Under the pieces are notes generated by a model. That model was not told where the DNA came from and searched no databases. It worked only from the letters and a program-made list of their open reading frames with translations. A program made the translations under genes and the position numbers. Shown in pieces: positions 1,328-45,207 of a DNA stretch of 64,000 bases (position 1 is its first letter; each line of letters begins with the position of its first letter). This DNA is from Acidimicrobiaceae bacterium (lineage in GTDB: Bacteria; Actinomycetota; Acidimicrobiia; Acidimicrobiales; JAUTXP01), in the NCBI GenBank assembly GCA_030837965.1, contig JAUTXP010000014.1, forward strand, positions 8,605-72,604, in the 5' to 3' direction.

Positions 1328-1366
1328 GCCGCTCAGGTCGAGCCCCCCGCCCGCCGACACCACTGT

Positions 1367-22156: not shown

Positions 22157-23395
22157 GTGGCAGGGGGAGTGACAGCGGGCGGACGCAAGGCCAGCGGCGG
22201 CGCAGACCAGGCCGTCATGCGCGAGCTGAACCGCTCCCTGGTGCTCGACGTGGTCAAGCACGCCAGCCCCATCTCGCGGGCCGCCATCGCCAAGGAGACC
22301 CACCTGGCCAAGCCCACGGTGAGCGCCATCGTGGACGAGCTGTTGGCGGGCGGCCTGGTGCGCGAGATCGGCGTGGGCGCCACCACCCACGAGGGCGGGC
22401 GCCCGCCCATCCTCCTCGAGTTCAACACCAGGTTTGAGTTCTCCGTAGGCGTCCATGTTGGCGTGCACGTCACCCATGTCGTGGTGGCCGACGCCAGGGG
22501 CGAGGCCCTGATCCAGCGCGAGATGCGCACGCCCGGCGGGTCGGCGGCCGAGGCCCTCGCCCGAGTGGCCGAGATCGTCGGGCAGTCGCTGACCACGGCC
22601 AAGGCGCCCCGGCGCCGGCTGGCCGGCATCGGCGTGTGCGTGCCCGGCCTGGTCGACCCCGAGGCCGGCGTCTGCCTGCTCGCCCCCAACCTGGGCTGGC
22701 GGGACGTGCCCGTGGCCGACCTGCTGGCCGAGGCCATGGGCGGCGGCGTCGCCGTCCACGTGCACAACACGGCCCAGGCCTGCGCGGTGGCCGAGACGCT
22801 CGAAGGCGCGGCCAAGGGATCGAAGGACGCCGTGCTCCTGTATGCGGGCACCGGTGTGGGCGCGGGCATCATCATCGACGAGCGGCTGTACCCAGGCTCG
22901 GCGGGCATTGCGGGCGAGGTGGGCCACTTCCGCGTGCAAGGCGTCGACACCCGCTGCTCGTGCGGCAAGGTCGGCTGCCTGGAGACGGTCGTATCCGTGC
23001 CTGCGGTGGTGGCCGCGGCCAGGGCTGCGGGCGTGGGCGGCGACAAGTTGACGCTGGAGACGGTGGTGGCCGCGGCCGACGCGGGCGACGCTGCGGCCCG
23101 ACAGGTGCTGACCGACGCGGGCCACAGGCTGGGCACGGCCGCGTCGTGGCTGGTGAACCTGTTGAACCCGGACGTCCTCGTCATCGGCGGCGCCCTGGCC
23201 GAGGCGGGGGACCTGGTGCTGGACCCGCTGCGTCAGGCCGTGGCCGAGGACGCCTTGCCCCAGGCCGTGTCCCGCCTGTCGATCCGGCCCTGGATGTTGG
23301 GCCAGGACGCCAAGGTGCGGGGCGCGGTGTTGGTGGCCATGCAGAAGTCGGAGACGTTCGTCCGCCTCATCTTCGGCGCCGACCGCCGCACCTGA
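22157..23395 (+). CDS. ROK-family transcriptional regulator
   Basis: 412 aa with an N-terminal wHTH (ELNRSLVLDVVKHASPISRAAIAKETHLAKPTVSAIVDEL) and the ROK zinc motif CSCGKVGCLE. An alternative start is ATG 22217. Confidence 0.85.
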   Translation: MAGGVTAGGRKASGGADQAVMRELNRSLVLDVVKHASPISRAAIAKETHLAKPTVSAIVDELLAGGLVREIGVGATTHEGGRPPILLEFNTRFEFSVGVHVGVHVTHVVVADARGEALIQREMRTPGGSAAEALARVAEIVGQSLTTAKAPRRRLAGIGVCVPGLVDPEAGVCLLAPNLGWRDVPVADLLAEAMGGGVAVHVHNTAQACAVAETLEGAAKGSKDAVLLYAGTGVGAGIIIDERLYPGSAGIAGEVGHFRVQGVDTRCSCGKVGCLETVVSVPAVVAAARAAGVGGDKLTLETVVAAADAGDAAARQVLTDAGHRLGTAASWLVNLLNPDVLVIGGALAEAGDLVLDPLRQAVAEDALPQAVSRLSIRPWMLGQDAKVRGAVLVAMQKSETFVRLIFGADRRT

Positions 23396-23474: not shown

Positions 23475-25181
23475 TTAGCGGCCGCAGGGGGTGGTGAACA
23501 GGCCCGGGTCGCCCTTGCCGTACTGGCCCAGCCTGCGGCGCTTGCCCCCGTCGATGTAGCAGAACCCGCCCTGCTGGCCGTAGTCCTCGCTGGTGAAGCT
23601 CGGGCTCCACCAGATGATGGCCGCGTCCTCCATGAACGAGTGCGTGCCCGGGCTCACCGTCACCTTGCCCGGCATGTTCTTGTGCGGCGGGTTGGGCCAC
23701 TTGGCCCGCATCATCCCGGCCGCGAACGACTCCGGGTTGAGGTGCGGGCCCGCCAACTGCAGCCCGGAGAAGAGCACCAGCATGGCCATGTAGTCCCAGC
23801 GAGCCCCGAAGTACGTGCCCGGCGCATACGGCCACACGAAGCCGGGCTGGATCTCGTTGACGGCCTGCCACCAGAACTCGTCCTCCACCTGGGCCTGCTG
23901 CTTGTTGCGGGTGGAGATGCCGAACGTGTGGGCCGTCTGGGTCTGGGGCTGGGCGCTGATAAACAGGTCCTCGTCGTTGTAGAGGTACCCGGACAGCATG
24001 ATCTCGGGCTGGTAGCCCTGGCTGTCGAGCAGCGAGTAGAGCTGCTTGGTCGTGTTCGAATGGGTCAGCACGATGATCGTGGTGACACCCTTCGACCGCC
24101 AGTCGAACACGGCCGACTGCATCTGCTGCGCGGTGGCGGGCGTGGCCCCCTGCCCGGCCGTGCTGTCCCGCTCCACCTGCACGGTGTGCTCGACGGCGTG
24201 GATGCCGCACGCTTCCAGCGCGGCCTTGGCCGGCCCGTAGTCCGGGGTGGGAGCGTCGGTGTAGCTGTTCTCCAACAGGCCGTAGGAGCGGGGCGTGTTG
24301 ATGAACTCGGGGCCGGCGTGGGCCGCGTTGCCGTCCTTGAGGGCGCAGGCCAACTCGGCCAAGTGGCGGGCCCCCTTGTCGAAGGTGGGCATCATCGTCC
24401 ACTCATACGGATGGTGCTTGGCCAGGTTGTCCTCGTTGGCCGTGTAGGGCCTGCCGTTCACGCTGATCACGCCGCGGTTGGCCAGCTCGTCGTAGTAGTA
24501 GGCCTCGCTGCCCATGATGTCGCAGAAGGACGTGGACGCGAAGACCTGGGCCTTGGCCACCGACCGGGCCGCGTTCTGGGCCACCGAGGGCGACCCGCCG
24601 AAGCACCCGCCAGCCTTGGAGTCGATGGCCTGTCGGCCGTACAGCTCGAAGCGCTTGTTGAAGTAGGCGAGCAGCTTCAAGAACACCGAGTCGTCGGTGT
24701 GGCCGGGGAAGGCCAGCCGGATGGCGTTGGCGTCCACGCCCATTGACGTGACGCCGCCGTTGTCGCCCTCGAAGTACGGCACGCACGGCGGCGACTGGGG
24801 GTCCTCGGTCTGGCGGGGCGGATCGCCCAGGCACGACCGGACCCGCTCGCTGTTGGGGGGCAGCTTGATGGTCGACGTCGTGGTCGGCGGCTTGGGCTGG
24901 CCGGTGGCCGGGTCGATCTCGGCATCGGGTGGACGGGCCGTGCTGTTGCCCGCATCGCCTCCCGCGGCCAGGCCGTTCTCGGCCGACTGCTGCGGGGGCG
25001 CGTCCTTGATGGCCTGCACGGCCTCGGGCGCGTACTCGGCGATGGGCGGGGGCGGCGGCTGGCTGGGGCTCAACGCGGCGATGAGCAGCACGGCCAGCGC
25101 CGCGGCCAGACCGGTGAACACGAAGCCCGGTGCCTTGGCCCCCTTCTTGGGCGGCGGGGTGGTCTCGACGGTCACAGCCAC
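23475..25181 (-). CDS. Membrane-anchored extracytoplasmic protein, possibly a type-I (LivJ-like) solute-binding protein
   Basis: 568 aa with an N-terminal TM anchor (FVFTGLAAALAVLLIAAL) and a Pro/Thr-rich linker followed by a large globular part. The binding-protein assignment is only a guess from context and composition. Confidence 0.6.
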   Translation of the reverse strand: MAVTVETTPPPKKGAKAPGFVFTGLAAALAVLLIAALSPSQPPPPPIAEYAPEAVQAIKDAPPQQSAENGLAAGGDAGNSTARPPDAEIDPATGQPKPPTTTSTIKLPPNSERVRSCLGDPPRQTEDPQSPPCVPYFEGDNGGVTSMGVDANAIRLAFPGHTDDSVFLKLLAYFNKRFELYGRQAIDSKAGGCFGGSPSVAQNAARSVAKAQVFASTSFCDIMGSEAYYYDELANRGVISVNGRPYTANEDNLAKHHPYEWTMMPTFDKGARHLAELACALKDGNAAHAGPEFINTPRSYGLLENSYTDAPTPDYGPAKAALEACGIHAVEHTVQVERDSTAGQGATPATAQQMQSAVFDWRSKGVTTIIVLTHSNTTKQLYSLLDSQGYQPEIMLSGYLYNDEDLFISAQPQTQTAHTFGISTRNKQQAQVEDEFWWQAVNEIQPGFVWPYAPGTYFGARWDYMAMLVLFSGLQLAGPHLNPESFAAGMMRAKWPNPPHKNMPGKVTVSPGTHSFMEDAAIIWWSPSFTSEDYGQQGGFCYIDGGKRRRLGQYGKGDPGLFTTPCGR

Positions 25182-25185
25182 TCCA

Positions 25186-25518
25186 TCACTCCCGCATCAA
25201 CTCGATGGTCTCGGTGCCCGAGCCGTCGGCCTTGGGCACGACACAGCGCAGCTCCTCGCGCTGGGCCTGGGTGATGCAACTGATGACCGGTCGGCCCTTG
25301 ACCTGCATGAGCCGCAGCTTGCCCCGGCCGTCGAACTCGGCCTTTTTGTTGTTGACCTTCAGCTTGTCGCCGATGCTGATTCGATAGGGCTGGTCGGCCG
25401 ACGTGCTGCCAGCGAAGTCGCCCTTCGGCAGGTAGCGGGCGTCGCCGCCGCACGCGCCGGCACCCAGCATCACGATGGTCGCCGCCCACACCGACACCCA
25501 CAGCCGCGGCCGGCTCAT
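25186..25518 (-). CDS. Small lipoprotein (110 aa)
   Basis: ATG 25518 within ORF 25186..25809. Signal plus lipobox-like sequence MSRPRLWVSVWAATIVMLGAGACGG. ATGA overlap with the upstream gene. Confidence 0.65.
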   Translation of the reverse strand: MSRPRLWVSVWAATIVMLGAGACGGDARYLPKGDFAGSTSADQPYRISIGDKLKVNNKKAEFDGRGKLRLMQVKGRPVISCITQAQREELRCVVPKADGSGTETIELMRE

Positions 25519-26483
25519 CCGCCCGGCACCTGGTTGATGGTGGCCGTGTACTGGCCGGCGACGTCGTCCGCGCCCGCCTTGCCGTGCCACACCACTGACT
25601 CCTGCACGATGAGGCCGCCGTACTGGGTCGCGATCCAGTCCGTGATCTCGGAGTGCACCTGCTGCAACGGGGTGTCCACGTCTTGACTGATGACGACCTG
25701 CCACGCGTCGATGTGCCCGGTGCAGGCCCACACCTTGGACTTGGCCAGGACCTTGCCGTTGACGGTGAAGGTCGTAGCGCTCAACGGGTCGACCGTCGTG
25801 TCCGTCCACGTGGCCCCGACGGTGGCGTCGAGGCTCAACAGCGTCACTGGTTTGGGCGCGTTGAACGAGGGCTGGGCGTCGATGCCCCGGCCCGTGGCCG
25901 ATACGGCCTTGAGCCCCACCGAGCCGGGAACACGGCCGTTGGTGGGCGATGACTGATAGGTGGCCGTCGTCTTGACGCCGAGCACGTCGGACACGAGCTT
26001 GAACGTGACCTGCCCGTCCGGCGTGGCCGAGGAGTTCTGCACGCTGCGGGAGAACGAGCCCACCACCGACTTGCCCTCCACCACACCGTCGATGCGGTAC
26101 GTGTAGTCGCCCGCAGGCGGGGCGCCGCCGAGCGTGCGGGTGGCCTCGAGCTTGGGCGGGGTGACCTGGTCGTCGACGGGGCAGGCGACCACGGGCTGAG
26201 GCACGGGCAGCGGGTCCTCGAACACCGCGGCGGCCCCGTTGCGCTTCCTCACGGGCTCGGCGACGGGGACAACGCCGACGCCACCCAGCACGGGCGCCAG
26301 CACGAAGGGCACGTCCGGGGCGCGGGGATCGTCGGGCGAGGGCTTGCCGAACGACACGTTCACAGGCACCGACTTGCCGCCGAAGGACAGGGACGGCTTG
26401 GGCCCGCCGCAGGCGCTGGTCCCCGCCGCCACCAACGAAAGCGCGGCCAACAGCCGCACGCCGCCGACCCGACCCCGCCTCAC
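25515..26483 (-). CDS. Lipoprotein (322 aa), function unknown
   Basis: GTG 26483 within ORF 25515..27464. Signal sequence VRRGRVGGVRLLAALSLVAAGTSACGG. GTGA overlap with the upstream stop. Beta-rich composition. Confidence 0.7.
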   Translation of the reverse strand: MRRGRVGGVRLLAALSLVAAGTSACGGPKPSLSFGGKSVPVNVSFGKPSPDDPRAPDVPFVLAPVLGGVGVVPVAEPVRKRNGAAAVFEDPLPVPQPVVACPVDDQVTPPKLEATRTLGGAPPAGDYTYRIDGVVEGKSVVGSFSRSVQNSSATPDGQVTFKLVSDVLGVKTTATYQSSPTNGRVPGSVGLKAVSATGRGIDAQPSFNAPKPVTLLSLDATVGATWTDTTVDPLSATTFTVNGKVLAKSKVWACTGHIDAWQVVISQDVDTPLQQVHSEITDWIATQYGGLIVQESVVWHGKAGADDVAGQYTATINQVPGG

Positions 26484-29245
26484 AGCGCGCCCTTCTGGAA
26501 TCGCAGCACCTCGGCCAGCAACTGCTTCGGCGCCGGGTACTCGGGCCGCACTTGCAGGATCTCGAACACGTCGCCCCGCGGCGGGAACCACAGATAGAGC
26601 CGAAGCTCGGACAACTCCTGCACGCCGATCCATTGCCCCTCCATCTTGAACCAGCGGTACTGGCCTGTCTCGATGAACTGGCGGATTCCTCGGCGCACGA
26701 CGATGTCCGTGGTGTCGAACCTGGGCTTGAGCACCGACACCTGGAGCGCGGCCTGCACTTGCGATGTGGACGGCGAGCGCAGGGTCCAGAAAGACCCCTT
26801 GGCCACCATGGACGACGAGCCCGCCTTGCCGAAGGCCTTGGCCGCGCCCGTCTCCTGCGCGGCTCGCAGCGCCAGCACGTCGGCGGGCAGGACGTTGGCG
26901 GGAAGCGGCCCGGCCTGCTTGGCCACTGCCGCGCCCCCGCACGATCCGGTGACCAACGCCAGCACGGTGCCCAGGGCCGGGACCAGGCGGCGCAACAGCC
27001 TGGCCCTGCCCGTGCCGCCTCGCCGCTCTTGGCGCTCGGCTCGACGGTCCGACCTGGCCTTGACCCAGGTGTTGGGCAGGGCCGGGTCGTACGGCCGCCG
27101 CAACGACGCCTTGGCCACCGCGCCCGTCACTTGGGCCACACCCGACTGAGCTCGGGCCAGGCGGCGTCGGAGCGACGCGCTCATGACCTCGGCCGCGTCG
27201 GCGTCGGCGTCGCGCAGGTCGCGGGACAAGTCGCCGTACAGGCCGCGGGTCACCAGCCACGCCAACTCCGCGTGCTCGTCGTCGTCGTCCACCGCCTCCA
27301 GGAACTCCAACGGGGTGGCCGTGGGGTCGCCGATGTTGAGGTCCAACGCCATGTCCCTGAACTCGGCGTAGGCCACGGCCACGCGCGCCCCCGACCCGCG
27401 GGACGTGGCCCAGGCCAGCCGACGACGACGACGCCACAGCTTCAACAGCCACGGCATGGCCCACAGCAGCGCGGCCGCGGCCACCACGAAGGGCAGGGCC
27501 GCGAACACCCAGTAGCGGACCACTTGGAAGAAGAGCAATGGGTTCGGGTTCTGGACCGGGAGATAGATCTGGAGCGACAAGTCCTCACTGGGCCGGACCT
27601 GGTCGTCGATCTTCTTGGACTCGTTGTTGAGCGAGGCCTGGGCCTTCGGGGGCACGCCGACCACCGGCGTCCAGCCCAGGTTGGGGAACCAGACCTCGAG
27701 CCAGTTGGCCCCGTCCTTGGGCCTGAACTCGACGGCCCCGGTGGGCAGCTTGGTGCCGCCCTTGAAGCCGTACCCGATGCGGGCCGGGAGTCCGGCCCAG
27801 CGGGCCAGCAGGGCTTCGGCGGCCACGATCTCGTAGGGCGTGCCTGTCCCGCCTCGAAGCAGTTCGGCCACCTTGGCCCCGTTGATGTCGACGGGGACGC
27901 CCGCGCCCGACGCCACCACGGACGCGTACAGCTTCGAGCGCATGAACTGGAGCCGCTCCCACTGGTTGGTGGGCGCGCCCGCCAGCAGGTCGGACACCAG
28001 CAGCGGCGGCTCGGGCGCCTGGGCGAAACGGGCCACGTCCACCGGCACCGCCCCCACCGCGGCGGCCAACTCGTCACCGGTGGGCGGACGGGCCGCCTCG
28101 ATGGTGTAGCGATAGCCGATGCCGGGCGAGCCCTTGCGCACGCGCAACACCTGGGTCCGCGGGTCGTAGCCCACGTGCCCGCCCGCGCTGCCGATGGACA
28201 CAGGGCTGGCGGGGACGGGCAGGTTGAAGCCGCCGATGTCCTGCACCGTCACCAGTGCCTTGATCGTGGGCCTTCCCAATGGCGCGGGCGGGATGCGGTC
28301 TTGGAAGCGTTTGAGGTCGAGAGGCGGCAGCAGCCATCCGCCCTTGTCGTACTCGTCCAGCACGCCCAGCCGCCACGGGCCCGACGCGTCGACGCCCGAG
28401 TCGGCCTGGACCTCGAACAGGGGCCGGTCCCTCACCTTGTTCAAGGGTTGGATCTGCGGCTTCTGGGGCTTGGCCGACCGGTCCGTCTTGGGCTCCGGGA
28501 ACAGGAGGCTGGCCTGACTCAACGCCCCGACCACGACCAGCGCGGCGCCCACCCCGGCCGCGCCCCGCAGGAGCTGGCGGGCCTCGAACCGCGGCCCGGT
28601 GTCGGCCTCGTCGGCCAACTCGGCGCTGAACGTCATCATCAGCCCGGCCACCAGCAGCACGAGGGCGACGACGCCGGCCAGGACCTCGCCCCCGGTGGGC
28701 TGGCTGAGGGCGGCCGCGATCACGAGGGGCAGGGGGATGAGCAGGGTCAGCTTGGGCCGCTGCAACCCGAGGGCGAGCGATGCGGACGCGGCGCCGATCA
28801 GGGTCAAAAGGGCGACGATGATGAAGCGCCAGCCCGGGTCGAACGGGACCGGCGGCTCGGACAGCCCGCCGTTCTGAATGGCCCTGCGCACCAGTTCGGG
28901 AACGGTGCCGGTCACGCCCGTGTCGTTGGGCAGGATCAGTGCGGCCAGATAGCCGAGGACGAAGGCGCCGGGCACCACGCCGTATTGCAGGACGGGCCGG
29001 TTGCGGCGCACGGCCAGCCACACCCCGCCCACCCCTGCGGCCGCGCCGGCCAGAGCGACCGGCCGGGCCATCCAGCCTTGGAACACGCCGCCCGCCACCC
29101 AGGCCGCGGCCATGGACGCCAACAAGGCGGCCAGCGCCACCCGCCCCGGCCGCGCCACCCCGCCCGCGCCCCCCAAGTCCAACTTTTCCACAGCAGCAGG
29201 TGCTGTGGAAAAGTTCGGGGAGGGCGGTGAGATGGGGGTGGTCAT
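26480..29245 (-). CDS. DUF3488/transglutaminase-like/DUF4129-type membrane protein with extra C-terminal module
   Basis: In ORF 26480..30364. ATG 29245 forms an ATGA overlap with the DUF58 stop; an alternative GTG at 29158 lies downstream of hairpin A3. It has an N-terminal multi-TM region, a TGase-core-like segment (GTPYEIVAAEALLARWAGLPARIGYGF...DGANWLEVWFPNLGW), a late TM helix and then a DUF4129-like tail. Confidence 0.75.
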   Translation of the reverse strand: MTTPISPPSPNFSTAPAAVEKLDLGGAGGVARPGRVALAALLASMAAAWVAGGVFQGWMARPVALAGAAAGVGGVWLAVRRNRPVLQYGVVPGAFVLGYLAALILPNDTGVTGTVPELVRRAIQNGGLSEPPVPFDPGWRFIIVALLTLIGAASASLALGLQRPKLTLLIPLPLVIAAALSQPTGGEVLAGVVALVLLVAGLMMTFSAELADEADTGPRFEARQLLRGAAGVGAALVVVGALSQASLLFPEPKTDRSAKPQKPQIQPLNKVRDRPLFEVQADSGVDASGPWRLGVLDEYDKGGWLLPPLDLKRFQDRIPPAPLGRPTIKALVTVQDIGGFNLPVPASPVSIGSAGGHVGYDPRTQVLRVRKGSPGIGYRYTIEAARPPTGDELAAAVGAVPVDVARFAQAPEPPLLVSDLLAGAPTNQWERLQFMRSKLYASVVASGAGVPVDINGAKVAELLRGGTGTPYEIVAAEALLARWAGLPARIGYGFKGGTKLPTGAVEFRPKDGANWLEVWFPNLGWTPVVGVPPKAQASLNNESKKIDDQVRPSEDLSLQIYLPVQNPNPLLFFQVVRYWVFAALPFVVAAAALLWAMPWLLKLWRRRRRLAWATSRGSGARVAVAYAEFRDMALDLNIGDPTATPLEFLEAVDDDDEHAELAWLVTRGLYGDLSRDLRDADADAAEVMSASLRRRLARAQSGVAQVTGAVAKASLRRPYDPALPNTWVKARSDRRAERQERRGGTGRARLLRRLVPALGTVLALVTGSCGGAAVAKQAGPLPANVLPADVLALRAAQETGAAKAFGKAGSSSMVAKGSFWTLRSPSTSQVQAALQVSVLKPRFDTTDIVVRRGIRQFIETGQYRWFKMEGQWIGVQELSELRLYLWFPPRGDVFEILQVRPEYPAPKQLLAEVLRFQKGAL
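29181..29215. repeat. Hairpin repeat family A, copy 3 (inverted orientation, loop GCAGG)
   Basis: AACTTTTCCACAGCA-GCAGG-TGCTGTGGAAAAGTT lies at the DUF58/TGase-like gene junction on a minus-strand operon. Confidence 0.9.
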
Positions 29246-30450
29246 CGGCGGCCCGCCCCCACTTCGGCCCGGAACACGGCTTCGAGCGACGCCAGCGGCC
29301 GCAGTTGCACGACCTGGCAGCCCAGGGTCGAGGCGAACGCCTGGGTGCGCGGGTCGGAGTCCTCCCACGTGAGGATTACCAGCACCACGTGGGTGCCCCG
29401 GTCGATGAGCAGCTTCAGCCGGGCCGCGGTCTCGCCGTCGAGATGGGGCGTGATGACGACGGTGTGGGCGTTGGCCGCCGCCCCCGCCAGCGTGACCACG
29501 CCCTCGGTCAACCGCTGCTTGCCCCGCTCGACCCGGGCCAGTTCGTCCAGCATCGGGATGCGGCCGGGCTCGTTGCGATAGACCGCGCCCAGCCTGCCGC
29601 CGTTGCCGAACAGCGAGACCGAGAAACCCGTCTTCAAGTGGTGGACGGCCAGCGAGGCGGCCGTCTTGATGGCGGCCTCGAACGTGTCGCTGGGGTCGCC
29701 GGGGGAGTGGGACGACGTGTCCGTGTCGATGAGGATGTGGACCCGGTCGGTGATGCCCTGCTCCGACTCGCGGATGAGCAGCCGGCCGGTGCGGGCCACC
29801 GCCTTCCACACCACCCGCTTCAACTCGTCGCCCCGCACGTAGTCGCGCATGCCGTAGAACTCGAAGCCGCTGGGCCACGGCTTCGACTCCGGCGGCCGGG
29901 TCGGCGGGTCCTCCCACTGCCGGGTGAGCGGACGGTCGTGCACGGCCTCGGTGGCCGGATGCACGATCACCGTGGTGGGCGGCAGCAGTTCGCTGGTCCT
30001 TCGGGTCAGGCCGAACGGGTCGGTCCACACCGCGACCAGCGGCCCGATCTCGTACACCCCCCGCAGCCGGGGCGTGACCGCGTACCGGTGGGGCAGGACG
30101 GTGCCGGGCTGCAAACCGGTCACGGGAACGGTGCGCGTGGTGCCCAAGTGCGGGTGCAACTGCTCCTCCATGAGGAACACGCCCACCCGCCGCTTGGCCG
30201 AGACCGAGACCTCCACCTCCATGCGCTGGCCTTGGCGCAAGCGGGTCGGCACCTCGCTGCGCTCGGCCACCAGGTCGGGCCTGCGCCTGCCCAGGAAGCG
30301 GGCCACTCCCACCACGGCGCCCACGCCGTACACGAGCACGAACAACGTGCGCCCGCCCACCCATCGGGCGAGGAACCAGCAGCCGAACGCGGCGAGGAGC
30401 ACGACGACGCCCGTCGTGGTCAACCCGGTCGCGCTCCGCAGCCGCCGCAT
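29242..30450 (-). CDS. DUF58 domain protein
   Basis: 402 aa with two N-terminal TM helices and the DUF58 hallmark FYGMRDYVRGDELKRVVWKAVARTGRLLIRE. Confidence 0.85.
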   Translation of the reverse strand: MRRLRSATGLTTTGVVVLLAAFGCWFLARWVGGRTLFVLVYGVGAVVGVARFLGRRRPDLVAERSEVPTRLRQGQRMEVEVSVSAKRRVGVFLMEEQLHPHLGTTRTVPVTGLQPGTVLPHRYAVTPRLRGVYEIGPLVAVWTDPFGLTRRTSELLPPTTVIVHPATEAVHDRPLTRQWEDPPTRPPESKPWPSGFEFYGMRDYVRGDELKRVVWKAVARTGRLLIRESEQGITDRVHILIDTDTSSHSPGDPSDTFEAAIKTAASLAVHHLKTGFSVSLFGNGGRLGAVYRNEPGRIPMLDELARVERGKQRLTEGVVTLAGAAANAHTVVITPHLDGETAARLKLLIDRGTHVVLVILTWEDSDPRTQAFASTLGCQVVQLRPLASLEAVFRAEVGAGRR

Positions 30451-30457
30451 GCCCGGG

Positions 30458-31509
<1,052 letters not shown>

Positions 31510-31510
<1 letters not shown>

Positions 31511-34500
31511 CAGGTGGTGCTCCTCTTCTCGACGGACTCGATCTTCTCGACGGACTCGATCTTCTCGACACGCCCGGCGTTCTCGGCAGGCCCGGTAACG
31601 GCGGGCGTGCCCGACCGGGCCAGGACCCGCTGGGACGTCCCCAGGTAGGCCTCCACCATCCGGGGGTCCTCGGTGACGTCGGTGACCGAGCCCTCGATGA
31701 TCGTCTGGCCCCTCACCATGCCGACCATGCGGTCGGCGATACCAGTCAGGAGCCGCATGTCGTGCTCGATCACCAGCAGCCCGCAACCAGTCTCCCTGCG
31801 GACGCGGTCGAGCACGGGCCCCAGCTCTTCGGCCTCGGCCTGGGCGATGCCGGACGACGGCTCGTCCAGCAACAGCACATCTGGATCGGCGGCCATCTCA
31901 CACGCCAGGTCGACGATGCGACGCGACCCGGTGGACAGCTCGGACACGAACTTCTCGCGGTAGTCGCCCAGGCCCAGCAGTTCGATGAGGCCCTCGGCGC
32001 GGGACCGCAGCTTGCGCTCGGCCCTTCGCACCTGGGGCAGCCACAGGGCCGACAACGCGGCCGAGCGGGAGGCGGCCGTGTGGCGCTCCATGGCCACGGT
32101 GATCGTCTCCAAGACGGTGAGCGACGGGAACAGGCGGGCGTCCTGGAACGACCGGCCCAGGCCCAGGCGGGCCCGCTGGTCCGGCGCCATGGCGGTGACG
32201 TCCTTGCCGCCAATGAGGATGCGTCCAGTGTCGACCGGGACGAAGCCGGACACGGCGTCGAACAAGGTGGTCTTGCCTGCGCCGTTGGGGCCGATCACGC
32301 CCACGATCTCGCCCGCCGCGACCTGGATGGTGGCGCCCGCCAACGCCTTCACGCCGCCGTACGAGACGTGCACGTCCTCGGCCTGCATGGCGGGCACACG
32401 GTCGGGCGCGGTGTCGATGTACGAGCGCAGCCGGGCGGGCACGGCCTGGCCCCCGGACGTGCCCTTCAGATAGACGGAGCGCAGGATGTCGGGCCGGGCC
32501 AACAGGTCGGCCGTCGGGCCGGAGAACCGGACCTCGCCCTTCTCCATGAACACGGCCCGCTCGGCCACGCTCAAGGCGATGTTGACCGACTGCTCGACCA
32601 GGATGATGGCCGTCCCCGACGCGTGGATCTCCTCCACCGCCCGCAACAACTGCTCCACGATGGCGGGTGCCAGCCCGAGCGACAGCTCGTCGATCAACAG
32701 CACCTTGGGCCGCATGATGAGCGCTTGGCCCAAGGCGACCATCTGCTGCTCGCCGCCGGATAGGGCGCCCGCGGCCAGGTCCATGCGCTCGCGCAATGCG
32801 GGGAACAGCGTGAGGACGCGCTCGACGCGCCCATCCAGGTCGTCGGCGTCGATCCAGCCCGCGGCCGCCAGGTTCTCGGCCACGGACAGGGCGGGGAACA
32901 CGCCCTTGCCGCCCGGCATCTGCACGATGCCGAAGCGGGCCAACTCATGGGGCGGCGTGTAGGTGATGTCGCGCTCGTCCATGTAGATGGCGCCGCCGGT
33001 GGTCGGGGCCAAGCCGCTGATGGCCCGCAGCAGCGTGGACTTGCCCGCCCCGTTGGTGCCGAGCAGGGCGACCAGCTCACCCTCCTCCACCTCGAAGTCC
33101 ACGCCGAACAGAACCTGCACGCCGTCGTAGTGCACGTCCACCTTGCGACAGATCAACAGCTTGGCCCGGCCGGAGTCGTGCGACCTGGCCATCTCCTCCT
33201 CGGCCAGCGCCGCGTGCCGCGCGTCGGCGATGTCCTTGCCCACGTCCACCGACGCGGTCAGCAGGATGAGGGTGCCGATGGACAGCAGGGGCAGGGCGAA
33301 GAGCAAGGAGTTGTGGATGGCGTTGGCGCCCCCGGTGACGGCCACGGCCAACGGCAGGCTCAACAGGCCGATGAGGCCGAACAGCGGGGGAAGCTGCATG
33401 CCGAACGAGCGCAGTCGGGCGGGGACGACGAGCGACATCAACGTGTCTCGCGCCGCGATCGGAGTGGCCGAGAAGGCGGGCTGGGCCAAGGCCAGCACCA
33501 ACGCGATCCACCGGTTGCCGACGAACGCCAGCACGAGGATGGCGGCCACGTTGAAGACGTTGATGAGGCCGAGGAACGTCATGACCCGGCCAGGCTTCTC
33601 ACCTAGAAGCCGGTCGACGAGGGTGCCGCCGAAGGACAGTCCCATGCCCACCATCAACTGCTGCGCGCCCTGCATCAGGGCGACCGACAGGGGCGAGATA
33701 CCCGCGGTGCGGCTGATGATGACGAGCAACAGCGGGAGCAGCACAGGCCCGCCCGCGCTGAGGAACACCTGGGCGTAGGCCACCCGCCGCAGCGTGCGCA
33801 CGGACATGGCCCCGCGCAACGACTCGCCGAAGCTCGGATGCTGCTGCTCGCGCGACGCCACGTCCTCGCTGACACCGAGGCGCAGGCGATCCCATCGGCC
33901 GCGGGGCGGCTCCCTCAGCGTGAACCACGGGACCGCGCCTGCCAGCGCGACCACACCGGTGACGAGGATGGCCACCCGCCAGCCGAACACGGTGGCGAGG
34001 GCGCCGCCCGCGATGGCGCCGGGGATGAGGGCGGTGGCCGCGAACGCGGCCTTGGCGCCGATCACCCGGCCTCTGATCTCTGGGGGGTAGTAGTCGGCCA
34101 GCAGCGGCGCAGTGGTGGCCACCGAGATGGGGCCGAAGCCGCCCAGCGTGTCGTGGGTGATCTTCATGATCACCAAGCCGATGATCCCCGGCCAGATGCC
34201 GAAGACCAAGGCCATCACGGCCCAGATCAGCGCCGTCACCGCGCTGATGGCGACGCGCGACAAGCGGTCGGCGAAGTAGCCGGCGAAGGGCCCGATGGCG
34301 GCGCCGAAGAACGCGAACAGACCACCCACGCCGACCAACGCCGAGTCGCTGATGCCCAGGTCGCGCCGGATCACCAGGAAGCTGGCGTTGAACGTCCCGG
34401 CGAAAATGCCTTGGGTCATGCCGCTGAGGACCATGACCCAGAAGGGCCACGAGGACTGGCCGCTCTCGGCGATGCGGGGGTTGGCGTCGTGCACGAAGCG

Positions 34501-34641
34501 AACGAGGCGCTCCTTCAACGACGGCCGGGGTGGCCGGGACGCGCCCTGTTCGGGCCTCGGCGCGTCGATGGCGTCGACCGCCTCCATGCCGAGCGCCCGT
34601 TCGCGTTCGGAGGGGACGGGCGGGCGCAGGACGTCGGTCAT
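31510..34641 (-). CDS. Tri-domain fusion: MFS transporter domain + LivF-like ATPase + LivG-like ATPase (1043 aa)
   Basis: ATG 34641 within ORF 31510..35202, in an ATGA overlap with the upstream permease. Residues about 60-465 are 12-TM MFS-like (GYFADRLSRV motif A). NBD1 has GTNGAGKST, LSGGEQQM and LLIDELSLGLAP. NBD2 has GPNGAGKTT, LSTGSRR and LLLDEPSSG. Confidence 0.85.
31525..31569. repeat. 18-nt tandem repeat, 2.5 copies (CTTCTCGACGGACTCGAT)
   Basis: Seen directly. It encodes (VEKIES)x2-VEK at the extreme C-terminus of the MFS-ABC fusion protein. Confidence 0.9.
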
Positions 34642-36893
34642 TGCCTGCCTCGGGCATGCGCGGCGACGCGAGGGACAGTGAGCGGGCGGCGGGGCAGGCG
34701 GTAGCGCGCGGGAAGCTCGATGGGGCTCCCGTCGGCCCTGACCTTGGGATGGATGGCCGCCTTCTCCTCGCCCGCGAACACGCGCCCGTCGGCCAACAGG
34801 CTGGGCACGCGGATGCGGTTGCGCACCGCGATGCGCCGCAGCAGCGCGTCCCTCCCTGCGAACACGGCCTGGGTCAGCCCGCCGGGGACGAAGGCCAGGA
34901 TGACGAGCACCAGCGCGGCGCTGAACACGCCCACGAAGGCGGGCACGAAGATGGTGAGCCCGCCCACCATGAAGGCTCCGAGCAACGGCCCTGCGATCGA
35001 ACCCAGCCCGCCGATCACGACCATGAGGAACATGGTGAGGCTGACCTCGGGCGAGAAGTTGCCGGGGGCGATGCCGCCCTGCTGGTAGGCGAACAGCCCA
35101 CCCGCCATGGCCGCGATGAGGCCCGCCACTGCGAACGTCTCCAGCCGGGCCCGAACCAGGTTGATGCCGAACGACTGGGCGGCGCGGTCGTTGTCCCTGC
35201 ACGCGATCAAAGCCCGGGCCGTGCGGCTTCGGCGCATGCCCACCACGGCCACCGTCACCAGGCCCAGCAAGGCCAAGGCCAAGTAGTAGAAGACGGTCTC
35301 GTTGGACGCGTCGAGCCCGAAGATGGAAGGCCGCTCGATGGTGGAGGGCACGAGCCTGCCGCCGTAGCGCTCACCGAGCAGCACGTTGGTGACGGCCACG
35401 GCGAAGGCCAGCGTGGTGACGGCCAGGTACAGGCCGCGGATGCGCAGCGCGGGCAGGCCCACCACGACCGAGGCCAGCGCGCCGAGCAGGCCCGCCAGCG
35501 GCAGGGCGATGAGGAACGGCAAGCCGAGCTTGGCCCCGAACAAGGCCACGCCCCACCCGCCGATGGCGGCGAAGGCGAACTGGCCCAGCGAGATGAGGCC
35601 CGCCCAACCGGTGAGCAGCAGCAGCGAAAGACCGACGATCCCGTAGAGCAGCATCACCGTTCCGCTGGCGGTCTGGCTGGGCGACATGATGAACGGGAAG
35701 CCGACCACGATGAGGCCGAGGCCAATGGTGACGCGCCTGCGCAGTCGGGCCACGTCCTTCTGGCCTCGCAATTCCGCGGGAACGGGCCGCACCTCTCGGG
35801 CCGCGATCCATGACCCGCCGGTCGGGTCGACGCGCCCGGCGCGGGGCACGGGGCGCAGCAGCAGGAAGGCGAGCAGGAGGCCGAACACGACCAGGTCGAG
35901 GATGGTGGCGTTGCCGAACGACCACAGGAAGCTTTGGTCGAGCACGGCCAGTCCGAGCACGGCCAACAGGGCGAGAGGCAGGTTGACCATTCCGGCGATG
36001 ACCGCCGCGGCCAGGACGCGCACCAAGGTCCCCGCCGCCGCGCCGCCCGCGCCGCCGCCGTTGGCCATCACCGCCAACACGCCGGCCAGACCGGACAGCA
36101 GCCCGGCCATGGTCCACACGGTGGCGCCCACCATGGTGACGTTGACGCCGAGCGACGCGGCCCGGTCCGGGTTCTCGGCCGCGGCCCGAACGGCCACGCC
36201 GGTCCGCGTCCTGCGCAGGAACCACACGATGCCGACCAAGGCGACGACGGCGGCCACCACCGCGGCCACGTCGGCCGTGTTGAACACGGCGGGGGAGATG
36301 GTGAAGCGGATGTGCACCGGTGCGGGGATGACGCCGCCCGGCTCCTTGTCCTTGAACCACCCCGGCACCCGGCTGGCGGCCCACGTCATCACCTGGGCCA
36401 CGGCGATGGTGGCCACGGTGCCGACCAACGGAGGGGCGTCCCTGAAGCGGCGAATGACGAACAGGTAGGTGAGCAGGCCGAACACGGCGGAGATGAAGAT
36501 GGCGGTCAGCGCCGCGGTCCAGTACTCGGCCTGCACCATCCACGGCGACACCCGCCGGTTCAGGCAGTTGCACACCACGTTGGTGGCGATGAGCAGGGTG
36601 TGGCGCTTGACCAGTTCGAAGAACAACAGGCTGCCGAAGGCGCCCAGTTGGATCTGGGCGATGTTGATGACACGGCTGCTGCGGTAGACGAGGACCACGC
36701 CGGTAACGGCCAGGGCGGCCCGGCTGGCGAACACGCCAGCGCTCAGTCCGATGCCGAACGGCAGGCCTCGCGGGAACAGCGCGGCAGCCACGAAGACCAC
36801 GCCGATGAGGGCGGCGGCCAGCGCGTCGGGGCGGCGGGCGAGCGCGCCGAGTCGGGCGCGCAGGCCTGTGCCGTCAGACGAGTGTGCTGCCAC
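34638..36893 (-). CDS. Fused LivH-LivM type branched-chain amino acid (HAAT family) ABC permease
   Basis: 751 aa. The N-terminal half is LivH-like (RAAAENPDRAASLGVNV) and the C-terminal half is LivM-like (ACRDNDRAAQSFGINL). It has many TM helices. Confidence 0.85.
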   Translation of the reverse strand: MAAHSSDGTGLRARLGALARRPDALAAALIGVVFVAAALFPRGLPFGIGLSAGVFASRAALAVTGVVLVYRSSRVINIAQIQLGAFGSLLFFELVKRHTLLIATNVVCNCLNRRVSPWMVQAEYWTAALTAIFISAVFGLLTYLFVIRRFRDAPPLVGTVATIAVAQVMTWAASRVPGWFKDKEPGGVIPAPVHIRFTISPAVFNTADVAAVVAAVVALVGIVWFLRRTRTGVAVRAAAENPDRAASLGVNVTMVGATVWTMAGLLSGLAGVLAVMANGGGAGGAAAGTLVRVLAAAVIAGMVNLPLALLAVLGLAVLDQSFLWSFGNATILDLVVFGLLLAFLLLRPVPRAGRVDPTGGSWIAAREVRPVPAELRGQKDVARLRRRVTIGLGLIVVGFPFIMSPSQTASGTVMLLYGIVGLSLLLLTGWAGLISLGQFAFAAIGGWGVALFGAKLGLPFLIALPLAGLLGALASVVVGLPALRIRGLYLAVTTLAFAVAVTNVLLGERYGGRLVPSTIERPSIFGLDASNETVFYYLALALLGLVTVAVVGMRRSRTARALIACRDNDRAAQSFGINLVRARLETFAVAGLIAAMAGGLFAYQQGGIAPGNFSPEVSLTMFLMVVIGGLGSIAGPLLGAFMVGGLTIFVPAFVGVFSAALVLVILAFVPGGLTQAVFAGRDALLRRIAVRNRIRVPSLLADGRVFAGEEKAAIHPKVRADGSPIELPARYRLPRRPLTVPRVAAHARGRQ

Positions 36894-36972
36894 GTGTCGT
36901 TGCCGCTCCGGAGCGCGCCTCGGCCCGCCCGCTTGGTCGTGTTTCTACGACTATGAACATTCGGCGCCGGCC

Positions 36973-37001
36973 TTGACTCCCCCTGTCCATGTCCGTATGT
37001 T
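36973..37001 (+). promoter_or_regulatory. Candidate sigma-70-type promoter TTGACT-N17-TATGTT
   Basis: These near-consensus hexamers with 17-nt spacing lie in the roughly 200-bp divergent intergenic region, about 90 nt upstream of the 37092 gene. Sequence inspection only. Confidence 0.35.
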
Positions 37002-37091
37002 AAGCCGGAGTCCTAACAAACGTCGAGGCAGAAGAGCCCGCGTCCGGCGCCGCATCATTATCGGCTCGGACAGGGACGAAGAGGAGAACGG

Positions 37092-38450
37092 GTGCCGGGA
37101 GGACTTTCGCCCCGCCAGGTCGCCAATCAGCTCGAGCGATGCTTTCGCGCCGAGGCCGACTTCCTGCGCGTCCTGGGGGCGTGGACCGGACGGGTGGTCG
37201 AGAACGACGAGCGGCTGGCCCTGGCCCGAGACGTCGGTTGGCGGGCCGAGCATGCCGACGCCCTGCGTCTGCGCCTGACCCGGCTGCGCACCACCGACCG
37301 CATGATCCACGTGCCGTCGGCCGAGTGGCGGCACCTGGTCGAGCTGGTGGACGACGCGCCGGGCACGGACGAGCTGATCGCCGCGGTCTATCGCGTCGTG
37401 GTGCCCGCCCTCATCGACGCTTACGAGCGGCTGGCCGCCGAGTGCGATCCGCTGGCCGACGAGCTGACCATCCGGCTGGTGGAGCGCGAGCTGCTCCCCG
37501 ACCATCGCGAGCGGACGGTGTGGGCCGAGTGGTTCCTGGCGGGCCGTTCGCCCGACCCTGCATACGTCGATCAGGTGGCGGACGCGTTGGAGGCCGCGGG
37601 CGGCTTGGTCGTGCGCAGCGACGCCGTCCCCGACGACCGCGACGACGAGCAGGCCGACTTGGGCACAGGCTTTTGGCCGCTGCCGCGGGCCAACGTGGAT
37701 CGCATCGAGTTGGGCCGCGAGTACCGCATCGCGGCGGACGGCGAGCCGTTGTCGTACTGCCCGACCTTCGAGGAGTTCGGCCCGCGTGAGGTCGAGGTGC
37801 TCGTCGTGCATCACGGCCTCATGCCGGAGATCGCGTCGCTGTGCATCATCGGCGCCCTCTTGCACGAGGTGCCGGACCGGCCCTGGGCCTTCTACCGCGA
37901 CTTCGCCACCCAGTGCGCCGACGAGGTCCGCCACATCGGGCTGCTGCTGCGACGGCTCACCGAGTTGGACAGCGGGCCCGATGCCCACGCCTTCCCCACG
38001 TGGACCTTCTATGACGCGGTCGCCTTTTTGCCCGCCCGCGAACGCACGCTGGTGTTCAACGCCGTGGTCGAGGGCAACGTGGTCGAGACCCTGCACGAGC
38101 GGGCCGCGGCGTTGGAGCGGGCGGGCAGCCCCGAGAGCGCCTACGTCATGGACTGGATCTCGGCCGACGAGTCCCTTCATCTGCACAACGGGATGGCCTG
38201 GCTGGCCGACGGTGGCGCCGACGTGGACACGCTGCTCGACATGGGACAGGCCCTGTTGGGCGAGGTCATGCGCCAGAAGGGCGCCACCGAGAAGGTGTTC
38301 GACTCGGCGTCGGAGTCGTTGAGCAAGGGCAACTTCTACGCCCCTCGCAAGAACCCGGTGGCCCCCATCGCCCGTGAGTTGGGCGGGTTCTCCAAACCAC
38401 AGATCGACCGGCTCATCGAGTCGGCCGACGGCCGCACCATTCGGCGGTAG
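37092..38450 (+). CDS. Ferritin-like di-iron protein (DUF455-like C-terminal half) with about 220-aa N-terminal extension
   Basis: 452 aa with ExxH motifs (ADEVRHIGLL, ADESLHLHNG) and upstream Glu residues (MPEIASL, VVETLHE) in a helical context. Confidence 0.6.
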   Translation: MPGGLSPRQVANQLERCFRAEADFLRVLGAWTGRVVENDERLALARDVGWRAEHADALRLRLTRLRTTDRMIHVPSAEWRHLVELVDDAPGTDELIAAVYRVVVPALIDAYERLAAECDPLADELTIRLVERELLPDHRERTVWAEWFLAGRSPDPAYVDQVADALEAAGGLVVRSDAVPDDRDDEQADLGTGFWPLPRANVDRIELGREYRIAADGEPLSYCPTFEEFGPREVEVLVVHHGLMPEIASLCIIGALLHEVPDRPWAFYRDFATQCADEVRHIGLLLRRLTELDSGPDAHAFPTWTFYDAVAFLPARERTLVFNAVVEGNVVETLHERAAALERAGSPESAYVMDWISADESLHLHNGMAWLADGGADVDTLLDMGQALLGEVMRQKGATEKVFDSASESLSKGNFYAPRKNPVAPIARELGGFSKPQIDRLIESADGRTIRR

Positions 38451-38453
38451 CTG

Positions 38454-39170
38454 ATGGCTCTTGCCCTCGACGGACAGGTCGCCCTGGTGACCGGATCGGC
38501 GGGCGGGATCGGGCGCGCCCTGGTGTCGGCCCTGGGCCGCGAGGGCGCGTGCGTGGTGGGGGTGGACGTGGCCGAGTGCGATCTGTCGTCGGCCGCGGCG
38601 GTGTCCGAGTTGGTGCCGTCGGTGGTGAAGGAGCACGGCCGCATCGACGTGCTGGTCAACAACGCAGGGCTGGCCCGCCACAACGCCATCGTGGATGTGC
38701 GTGACGAGGACGTGGACCTCATGTGGGCGGTCAACGCCCGGGCCGTGATGCTGCTGTGCAGGGACGCGCTGCGGGCCATGTCCGCGCCGGGCGGTATCGG
38801 AGGGCAGATCGTCAACGTGGTCTCGACTGCGGGGCTGCGGGGCGGCGCGGGGGAGTCGGTCTACTGCGCCACCAAGTTCGCGGTGCGGGGCTTCACCGAG
38901 GCACTGGTTGACGAGGCCAGGGCCGCGGGCGTGCGCGTCCACGGCGTGTACCCCGCGGGCGTGGCCACCGGGTTCTGGTCCGACGCCACCGCGCACGGTC
39001 CGGGGGTGGACGTGGCCTCCGCCTTCTTGCAGCCGGAGGACGTGGCCGCGGTGGTGCTGTCGGCCCTGACCGCGCCCGCCCGCGTGCACGTGCCCGAAGT
39101 GGTGGTGCGGGCCGTGGCCGACGGCGATGTCGAGGGCACCCGGCGCAAGCTCGAATGGTTCCGGTCGTGA
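38454..39170 (+). CDS. SDR-family oxidoreductase
   Basis: 238 aa with VTGSAGGIGRAL, NNAG and YCATKFAVRGF (YxxxK). Confidence 0.88.
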   Translation: MALALDGQVALVTGSAGGIGRALVSALGREGACVVGVDVAECDLSSAAAVSELVPSVVKEHGRIDVLVNNAGLARHNAIVDVRDEDVDLMWAVNARAVMLLCRDALRAMSAPGGIGGQIVNVVSTAGLRGGAGESVYCATKFAVRGFTEALVDEARAAGVRVHGVYPAGVATGFWSDATAHGPGVDVASAFLQPEDVAAVVLSALTAPARVHVPEVVVRAVADGDVEGTRRKLEWFRS

Positions 39171-40000: not shown

Positions 40001-40002
40001 CG

Positions 40003-43318: not shown

Positions 43319-43325
43319 TGGCGGC

Positions 43326-45197: not shown

Positions 45198-45207
45198 TCG
45201 GTCGGTT

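Follow-up and report, generated by a model that had tools for sequence, protein, structure and literature searches.

Do MoxR-type ATPase, DUF58 and transglutaminase-like genes that share an apparent operon with an ATP-binding cassette (ABC) transporter belong to that transporter, or do two unrelated gene sets adjoin by chance? The question is raised by a 64,000-nt stretch of an Acidimicrobiaceae genome (contig JAUTXP010000014.1, assembly GCA_030837965.1; hereafter the window), in which eight genes, named g1–g8 in order of transcription, run on the minus strand from 36893 to 23475. The genes g1, g2 and g8 resemble an importer of the hydrophobic amino acid uptake transporter (HAAT) type, and g3 (MoxR), g4 (DUF58) and g5 (transglutaminase-like) are called here the triad. 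Modules of MoxR, DUF58 and transglutaminase occur widely in bacteria, pathogens among them, and lack a known target. Their function is stated to be unknown both for the PFNA cluster (PMC8430577) and for the mycobacterial moxR1 operon (PMC12067865).

The eight genes very probably belong to a single conserved system of several components and do not represent two adjacent operons. The best reading overall, with about an even chance of being right, is a HAAT-type importer fed by many anchored receptors, accompanied by a module of MoxR, DUF58, pseudo-transglutaminase and lipoproteins that would assemble or remodel the outer face of the importer. A discrete clade of the module is genetically tied to a recognisable ABC importer, and the question of its client therefore becomes directly testable. 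The locus may be the first where the client of a MoxR module can be named.

Operon layout

The window has a GC content of about 71%. The open reading frames (ORFs) of the operon, with their GC content at third codon positions (GC3) where it serves the call, are the following.

34638..36893, minus strand: g1, fused LivH-LivM type permease, 751 aa, with two BPD_transp_2 domains (GC3 0.93)
31510..34641, minus strand: g2, major facilitator superfamily (MFS) domain, LivF/UrtE-like nucleotide-binding domain (NBD) and LivG/UrtD-like NBD, 1043 aa (Pfam/NCBIfam)
30458..31510, minus strand: g3, MoxR-type AAA+ ATPase, 350 aa (Pfam AAA_3 and AAA_lid_2)
29242..30450, minus strand: g4, DUF58 protein, 402 aa, with an N-terminal hydrophobic pair (Pfam PF01882, hydropathy)
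26966..29245, minus strand: g5a, TgpA-like polytopic membrane protein with a predicted extracytoplasmic pseudo-transglutaminase core, residues 1–760 of the 921-aa g5
26480..26965, minus strand: g5b, C-terminal domain of g5, about 150–160 aa, a fused copy of a putative lipoprotein family
25515..26483, minus strand: g6, putative lipoprotein of 322 aa (conserved N-terminal motif, Pro-rich linker, all-beta domain)
25186..25518, minus strand: g7, 110-aa putative lipoprotein (GC3 0.92, 'GAGACGG' after a hydrophobic N-terminus)
23475..25181, minus strand: g8, membrane-anchored type-I periplasmic-binding-protein receptor, 568 aa (AlphaFold/Foldseek)
36894..37091, no strand: divergent intergenic region of about 200 bp upstream of g1, likely the promoter region of the operon

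The eight minus-strand ORFs span 23475–36893 with zero internal stops and have GC3 of 0.92–0.96 in frame and about 0.5–0.7 out of frame; their boundaries are exactly those of the original prediction. Start and stop codons overlap at five of the seven junctions, by ATGA at g1/g2, g4/g5 and g6/g7, by GTGA at g5/g6 and by TGATG (1-nt overlap) at g2/g3. The other two are gaps of 7 nt (g3/g4) and 4 nt (g7/g8), and every junction is as originally described. From this spacing, the layout appears to be one tightly packed operon, in line with the earlier proposal of a single transcription unit.

The intergenic region 36894..37091 is the sole non-coding gap of any size at the operon borders and contains one weak sigma-70-like site (36973–37001, plus strand). 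An Rfam scan of the region upstream of the operon found no riboswitch or leader element. A terminator scan gave 4 terminator-like sites, 5.1 being expected, and in this sequence of 71% GC the promoter and terminator scans neither split nor confirm the operon. The starts of g2, g3, g5, g6 and g7 are ambiguous in principle, as their ORFs reach far upstream into the preceding gene. For g8, the NCBI annotation of this metagenome-assembled genome (MAG) gives 566 aa, with the start two codons after the first GTG of the ORF.

Linkage of transporter and triad in other genomes

Relatives of the operon genes were retrieved in sequence scans and carry the labels L (loci) and P (proteins). Synteny counts rest on tblastn matches of the window proteins and on the gene calls of the searched collection, because GC3-based ORF calling picks antisense frames in places; the survey of neighbouring gene families is indicative only. 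The core of g5 is named a pseudo-transglutaminase because it lacks the Cys-His-Asp triad.

A metagenome scan seeded with the pseudo-transglutaminase gave 80 loci, and the flanks sufficed for judgement in 50. Homologues of g1 and g2 stood beside the triad in 50/50, in the order of the window in 38 and in the permuted order g3-g4-g5-(g6)-g1-g2 in 12. MoxR and DUF58 genes were found immediately upstream of g5 in 41 of the 43 loci scored for this. The linkage is thus kept through a change of gene order, which is strong evidence for functional coupling. A second scan, seeded with g8 and covering one genome per species, gave 69 loci, all from MAGs, and in 21 of them g1-g2-g3(-g4-g5) were contiguous and co-directional (tblastn; identities 30–68%). 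The full block was present in several orders of Actinomycetota and on two contigs of Dormibacterota. Contigs binned as Chloroflexota or Acidobacteriota had g8 with g1 only, plus part or all of g2 in two of the three, before the contig end. Wherever flanks permit in the relatives, the g1 homologue lies directly upstream of the g2 homologue, and the g5b and g6 families travel with the pseudo-transglutaminase clade.

Co-occurrence of the ABC and MoxR/DUF58/transglutaminase parts is far beyond chance. The original prediction had named a lack of co-occurrence in other genomes as the outcome that would speak against it; such a lack does not obtain, because both parts occur together in 50/50 pseudo-transglutaminase loci and in 21 genome loci. 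It had also placed the triad between the ATPase and binding-protein genes, which is not what the relatives conserve: the g8-type gene is mostly upstream of g1, and the triad precedes the transporter in 12/50. Identities of 25–70% and housekeeping flanks argue against a single, recently spread mobile element as the cause of the linkage.

Parts of the system exist separately. Among six g2 homologues with readable contigs in a g2-seeded search, the triad was present in 4/6, and the other 2/6 had just g1-g2 followed by a g8-like gene. The latter arrangement defines a triad-less sister group (L071, 10001–14819; context of P0150), about 45% identical to g2, in which g1-g2 is followed by a g8-like gene of 500–585 aa; no MoxR, DUF58 or transglutaminase genes were found near g1-g2 in either case. 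A triad of the cultured Nonomuraea gerenzanensis, used as a control (L153; NZ_LT559118.1, 9129489–9148334, on an 11.85-Mb record labelled 'plasmid I' and almost unannotated), has no g1, g2, g6 or g8 within 9 kb. Coupling to the ABC genes is therefore particular to the Pro-type pseudo-transglutaminase clade described below. A cultured carrier was sought, and the genome-species scan gave MAGs only and the plasmid collection only the distant Nonomuraea triad.

These separate parts are what an accidental neighbourhood would predict, i.e., an ordinary Liv-type operon that lies beside an ordinary MoxR/DUF58/transglutaminase module and has no functional link with it. Such an accident is hardly credible in view of the adjacency of g1/g2 in every evaluable pseudo-transglutaminase locus, in two gene orders and across several Actinomycetota orders and Dormibacterota. 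Moreover, overlaps span the boundary between transporter and triad, as in the TGATG of g2/g3: the gene calls of L072, L154 and L156 have the same tight packing, with start/stop overlaps that cross this boundary. The triad of the clade was never seen without the ABC genes, and the ABC genes were sometimes seen without the triad; the triad therefore looks like an accessory of the transporter. This asymmetry suits the original suggestion that MoxR may assemble or regulate the transporter or its lipoprotein partners.

Two loci are rearranged. L124 has g5-g5b-g6-g8 immediately after g1-g2, with a MoxR gene about 9 kb beyond, and L129 has DUF58 after g2, with MoxR undetectable between the two.

Permease and ATPase fusion

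Pfam PF02653 (BPD_transp_2) matches g1 in two stretches (E 1e-57). The halves match the LivM/UrtC and UrtB/LivH models of NCBIfam, all under the equivalog cut-offs. In g2, an MFS domain (about residues 65–470) precedes a LivF/UrtE-like NBD (about 495–727) and a LivG/UrtD-like NBD (about 752–1002). The isolated N-terminal part matches MFS_1 at residues 72–411 (profile positions 3–328 of 347, E 5e-22), and its count of 12 transmembrane helices is an estimate from hydropathy alone. Both NBDs match ABC_tran of Pfam, and g2 scores 316.7 bits for UrtE (cut-off 285.8), 289.4 for UrtD (cut-off 304.1), 280 for LivG and 253 for LivF in NCBIfam. The Pfam and NCBIfam assignments agree with the initial calls of a fused LivH-LivM permease, an MFS-LivF-LivG fusion, a MoxR ATPase and a DUF58 protein for g1–g4.

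Walker A, Walker B and signature motifs are present in both NBDs of g2, and the Walker motifs are conserved in homologues. The MFS domain is conserved as well, with motif A 'DRxxR' and 'PLLADYYPPExR' across g2 homologues, and with 'ADRLSRV' and a second 'VDRLL..PGRV' kept in 48–64 of them. It precedes the NBDs in 59/62 loci (all loci in hand at that point, genome loci included). L077, L097 and L099 form a divergent sub-group with g1, both NBDs (43–47% identity), triad, g5b and g8, in which an MFS domain ahead of the NBDs is undetectable. Automatic annotation names the members of the system 'hypothetical protein' or 'MFS transporter'.

HAAT importers (LivJ/K-HMGF, UrtABCDE; TC 3.A.1.4) likewise have two BPD_transp_2 domains, one LivG/UrtD-like and one LivF/UrtE-like ATPase, and a LivJ-like receptor. 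The transporter half of the system has the defining HAAT features, its fusions and its anchoring being the unusual exceptions. It differs in that one 751-aa protein combines both permeases, and in that the two ATPases, fused in F-then-G order, follow a complete MFS domain. The receptor, in turn, is a 568-aa protein anchored by a transmembrane helix, with a juxtamembrane motif and a Cys-rich N-terminal extension and below Pfam detection, and such receptors number tens of paralogues. Finally, a MoxR triad and putative lipoproteins are inherited together with the transporter. The products of g1, g2 and g8 probably form an importer with g8 as its receptor.

Receptor family

The g8 protein has no Pfam match even at E<=5 and no NCBIfam match, and a profile search of the PDB with it gave just one chance match. 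Its AlphaFold model (pLDDT, the per-residue model confidence, 83.6; residues 120–568 mostly >90) has a single N-terminal helix predicted to span the membrane, joined by a disordered linker to a two-lobe domain modelled with confidence. The best bacterial matches of this model in Foldseek are Peripla_BP_6 binding proteins (4n03, 4ey3, 4mlc and 3eaf; probability 1.0, TM-score 0.63–0.68), and PF13458 is recorded for several g8 homologues. In its predicted structure g8 thus has a LivJ-type binding-protein fold, which bears out its earlier description as a membrane-anchored, binding-protein-like gene.

Across the 94 g8 paralogues examined, the juxtamembrane motif QPPPPxxAEFAPxAV is conserved in all, a Cys-rich motif CxGDPPRQTEDPQSPPC is also conserved, and the ligand-binding lobes diverge to about 30% identity. 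Six Cys are invariant in the family. The contig CAZCSK010000002.1 (223 kb) has 30 near-full-length g8 paralogues in about 155 kb, many in tandem runs of 6–9 (loci L033, L035, L040, L041, L049, L055 and L061), and one g1-g2 transporter in its sampled parts (L049). In the relatives, a g8 gene is directly upstream of g1 in most loci and after g6, as in the window, in others. The fusion of an MFS domain to tandem ABC ATPases, the anchored LivJ-type receptors and the 30 receptor paralogues on one contig are unusual traits for a transporter.

The fold of g8 is also that of mGluR/ANF-type sensor domains. This would suit a sensor or 'transceptor', in which g8 receptors sense compounds and the ABC/MFS/MoxR complex passes a signal on, for example to an adjacent ROK, LacI or TetR regulator. 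Regulators are indeed frequent neighbours (ROK in the window; LacI, GntR and TetR in relatives), and in the bifidobacterial PFNA cluster (pkb2-fn3-aaa-atp-duf58-tgm) the MoxR-DUF58-TGM part has been discussed as a signalling device (PMC8430577). However, a kinase, helix-turn-helix, cyclase or other output domain is absent from the conserved gene set, both NBDs and the permease are intact and conserved, and the neighbouring regulators differ among loci. A sensor is therefore very unlikely.

In three relatives, an ORF of 300–350 aa without a Pfam match lies directly upstream of g1 (L154, 6694–7749; L072, 6883–7779; L156, 6802–7716). The one in L154 has a lipoprotein-like N-terminus, 'LAIAACSPAG'; it has no counterpart in the window.

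MoxR, DUF58 and the pseudo-transglutaminase

The g3 protein matches AAA_3 (E 5e-61) and AAA_lid_2 (E 2e-18), and its Walker A (GVGKS) and Walker B (LLADEINR) motifs are intact and near-invariant in 65 homologues. The g4 protein matches PF01882 (DUF58, E 2e-8) and has hydropathy peaks at residues 10–54. Its family has a conserved 'LDTD' in place of the usual DxSxS of the metal ion-dependent adhesion site (MIDAS) of von Willebrand factor A (vWA) domains.

In g5, Pfam identifies TgpA_N (=DUF3488, PF11992; E 3e-14) and Transglut_core (PF01841; E 3e-8). Of the initial call of a DUF3488/transglutaminase-like/DUF4129 protein, these two parts stand; the transglutaminase core appears dead, and DUF4129 (PF13559-type) was not found by Pfam in g5 or in residues ~590–740, even at E<=5. 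The sole PDB relative of g5 is TgpA of Pseudomonas aeruginosa (6g49). When the family profile is compared with 6g49, the position of the catalytic Cys (GFCAHYA) is taken by an invariant Pro and that of the His (DAHAW) by Ala or Ser, and the Asp is absent. The Pro occupies the Cys column in 15/15 locus homologues aligned.

A search of 1.8 billion representative proteins with the core gave 101 relatives at E<=1e-30, and Pro was found at the Cys column in 141/146 aligned top matches. The first canonical core in that search was P0397 (GYCEQFA...HAW...EPT; E ~3e-17), and its recovery in the same search validates the alignment columns. Judged from these residues, the transglutaminase core of g5 is catalytically dead, and the Pro-type pseudo-transglutaminase is by the same alignments a discrete clade. 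In the Nonomuraea core, too, the catalytic Cys is missing (Ser in GTSEQFA; MAW for HAW, YPT for DPT), and loss of catalysis may therefore be common among actinobacterial triads and not confined to this system. Repeats related to the pseudo-transglutaminase core are found in two giant proteins, P0373 (2678 aa, 6 matched stretches) and P0401 (3310 aa, 4 stretches).

Putative lipoprotein modules

The g5b domain lies behind a putative transmembrane helix (hydropathy peak at 757–775) that ends in a lipobox-like 'LVTGSCGG'. Homologues of g5b occur as stand-alone ORFs of about 190 aa with lipoprotein signals in 8 loci and in L154, all with a hydrophobic N-terminus followed by Cys, and g5b matches (tblastn) lie downstream of g5a in many loci. 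Because g5b is a gene of its own elsewhere, g5 is read as a TgpA-like protein fused to a lipoprotein module.

Both g6 and g7 have a putative signal peptide and a lipobox Cys that is invariant or plausible; among the putative lipoproteins the -3 residue is atypical in some. The g6 Cys is C25 in 'ACGGP', invariant across 18 homologues, as are C101 and C254, and a g6 homologue follows the g5 gene in many loci. The g6 model (pLDDT 78) is all-beta, with a weak match to a YmcC-like fold (E 1e-4, TM-score ~0.5). On so weak a match g6 is filed under no family. Homologues of g7 occur in the closest relatives only (L001, identical; L076, 36%). None of g5b, g6 and g7 has a Pfam or NCBIfam match, and mutual relatedness among g5b, g6 and g7 was undetectable by BLASTP.

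Three putative lipoprotein modules (g5b, g6 and g7) in one operon would also fit an envelope-building or export machine with mechanotransmission of the Lol/Lpt/MacB type, in which the lipoproteins or g8 are cargo and the triad with the pseudo-transglutaminase is a scaffold. The weak resemblance of g6 to YmcC-like envelope lipoproteins, the unexplained MFS domain and the g8 proteins, which are membrane-anchored and massively paralogous like surface proteins, all agree with such a machine. TgpA of P. aeruginosa, too, is reportedly essential for viability and suspected of a role in the envelope. On the other side, BPD_transp_2 permeases with LivF/G-type NBDs and a type-I binding protein are, to our knowledge, known only as importers. 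In addition, g8 has, in its model, a complete two-lobe ligand-binding fold, and the neighbouring genes are catabolic enzymes and sugar-responsive regulators, typical of uptake loci. An export machine is thus improbable.

Neighbouring genes and substrate

Recurring neighbours of the operon or of g8 arrays include PhyH dioxygenases, GH78 rhamnosidases, DUF4185, dehydratases of the enolase superfamily (MR_MLE) and GH13. Fusions of aldolase and short-chain dehydrogenase/reductase (SDR) domains, acyl-CoA ligases, esterases and LacI/GntR/TetR regulators also recur. Among 128 nearest neighbours, PhyH was counted in 6 and GH13 in 4. For example, L154 has LacI-PhyH-PhyH directly upstream of two g8-like genes, and in the window the ROK regulator and the GH35/PhyH/GH31/GH13 cluster echo neighbour families seen elsewhere. 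These neighbourhoods hint at plant-derived carbon, such as rhamnosides or other glycosides, sugar acids and possibly aromatic acids, and not necessarily at amino acids. As each association is modest in frequency, the substrate class is a hint and not a finding.

Proposed mechanism

In the preferred reading, g1 would provide both membrane domains, and g2 would power import with its two ATPase domains, which are joined to a full MFS domain. The g8 proteins, anchored in the membrane through their N-terminal helix, would bind the substrate and dock on g1. One transporter is probably fed by many g8 paralogues, which number up to dozens per genome, and the conserved juxtamembrane motif, possibly with the MFS domain, may tether the alternative receptors to it. 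The genes g3–g7 would encode a dedicated accessory, in which the cytoplasmic MoxR (g3) spends ATP and acts through the membrane-anchored, vWA-like DUF58 adaptor (g4) on the polytopic TgpA-like g5. The presumably outward-facing, non-catalytic transglutaminase fold of g5, with g5b, g6 and g7, would form a platform on the external face of the membrane. This platform may assemble, mature or remodel the complex of transporter and receptor, e.g., by loading or exchanging receptors.

The assembly or remodelling role of the accessory module is held tentatively, at rather less than an even chance. A narrower form of it, in which the MoxR/DUF58/pseudo-transglutaminase/lipoprotein module is an ATP-driven machine that loads, exchanges or unloads anchored binding proteins on a single importer, so that dozens of paralogues share one MFS-tagged transporter, is a speculative and unlikely one. 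If true, it would provide the first client and mechanism for an MRP-type MoxR-DUF58-transglutaminase module and would reveal a new way in which ABC uptake multiplexes its receptors.

Several points weigh against the preferred reading. The MFS domain of g2 is left unexplained by it. A transporter family without the triad exists (L071; context of P0150), and the triad is therefore unnecessary for basic transport. Gene spacing is the sole basis for the single operon. Every example comes from a metagenome or MAG of uncultured organisms, and taxon labels of MAGs can err. As to the substrate, each hinting neighbour family is present in just ~4–13 of ~150 loci, and the ligands of the closest solved folds to g8 are amino acids, aromatic acids or fatty acids and not sugars. 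Triads elsewhere also work without an ABC partner, both in Nonomuraea and in the PFNA cluster (PMC8430577).

The system seems restricted to soil lineages that are abundant but uncultured, namely Acidimicrobiia and other Actinomycetota, and Dormibacterota. It may therefore help these oligotrophs to harvest many plant-derived compounds with few transporters.

Comparison with known MoxR modules

MoxR(MRP)-DUF58-transglutaminase modules, as in the TgpA locus, the PFNA cluster and the Nonomuraea triad, have in common with g3–g5 the AAA_3 MoxR, the DUF58 protein and TgpA_N with Transglut_core, in the same order. In contrast to them, the present module has Pro for the catalytic Cys and has lost the His and Asp, includes the extra putative lipoprotein modules g5b and g6, and is always beside an ABC importer. 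The kinase and FN3 genes of PFNA-type modules are absent.

Several MoxR-family ATPases with a vWA-like adaptor are genetically tied to one client complex, including NorQ-NorD, CbbQ-CbbO and CoxD-E-F. RavA-ViaA is a further pair of an AAA+ MoxR-family ATPase with a vWA-like adaptor tied to a specific client (PMC12067865). In these four the client is a respiratory or carbon-fixing enzyme, whereas here it would be an ABC transporter.

The nearest functional analogy may be MxaR/MxaS in the maturation of methanol dehydrogenase. In MxaR-MxaS(-ACKL), one operon encodes a cytoplasmic MoxR ATPase, a DUF58 protein and extracytoplasmic proteins, and the client is across the membrane. Papers on moxJ and moxR are among the references of PMC12997753. 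The methanol-dehydrogenase operon includes a binding-protein-fold gene, moxJ (MxaJ/MoxJ), of the polar amino acid (PAAT) type, whereas the fold here is class I (LivJ-like). The present operon differs also in having no pyrroloquinoline quinone dehydrogenase, cytochrome or MxaC/L-type vWA proteins, its partner being a complete ABC importer.

The analogy suggests a sub-case of the preferred reading, in which MoxR-DUF58 loads a metal or cofactor into g8, g6 or a domain of g5. MoxR-family ATPases with vWA or DUF58 partners are commonly maturation factors (mxa, nor, cox, cbb), and MxaR/MxaS, which serve the insertion of Ca2+ into methanol dehydrogenase, provide the model. Also in favour are the binding-protein-fold gene moxJ of the methanol-dehydrogenase operon and, in g8 and g6, the invariant Cys pairs and acidic motifs that are conserved. 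However, g4 has 'LDTD' instead of a MIDAS-type DxSxS, no metal-binding motif was found in g5, g6 or g8, and the conserved set contains no metalloenzyme, so that insertion of a metal or cofactor is unlikely.

In the full-text literature that could be searched, which leaves most subscription journals out of reach, no link of an ABC importer to a MoxR module, no MFS-NBD-NBD fusion and no g8-type receptor family was described. The MoxR-DUF58-transglutaminase modules treated there belong to other settings, namely the bifidobacterial PFNA cluster and the mycobacterial moxR1 operon. The statement of the original prediction that no system of this kind was known agrees with this result.

Surroundings of the operon

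The genes that flank the operon are as they had first been called.

22157–23395, plus strand: ROK regulator, converging on g8
37092–46749, plus strand: divergent cluster DUF455-SDR-esterase-GH35-PhyH-GH31-GH13, beginning 200 bp upstream of g1

Other genes of the window encode phosphoglucosamine-mutase-like and GlmS-like proteins, alanine racemase, GroEL, IMP dehydrogenase (IMPDH), GMP synthase and a PcrA/UvrD helicase. No second copy of the operon and no paralogues of its genes were found within the window. Since the rest of the window is ordinary chromosome with housekeeping genes, the operon is not on a mobile island. An anti-phage or conflict-system reading, considered because such roles are discussed for MoxR-vWA systems, was rejected, as PADLOC gave nothing for g3–g8 and just generic P-loop matches for g2, and the flanks are housekeeping. 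A GGDEF-EAL protein, unrelated to the operon, is encoded at 1328–3463 (plus strand) amid housekeeping genes that include a PALP/ACT enzyme.

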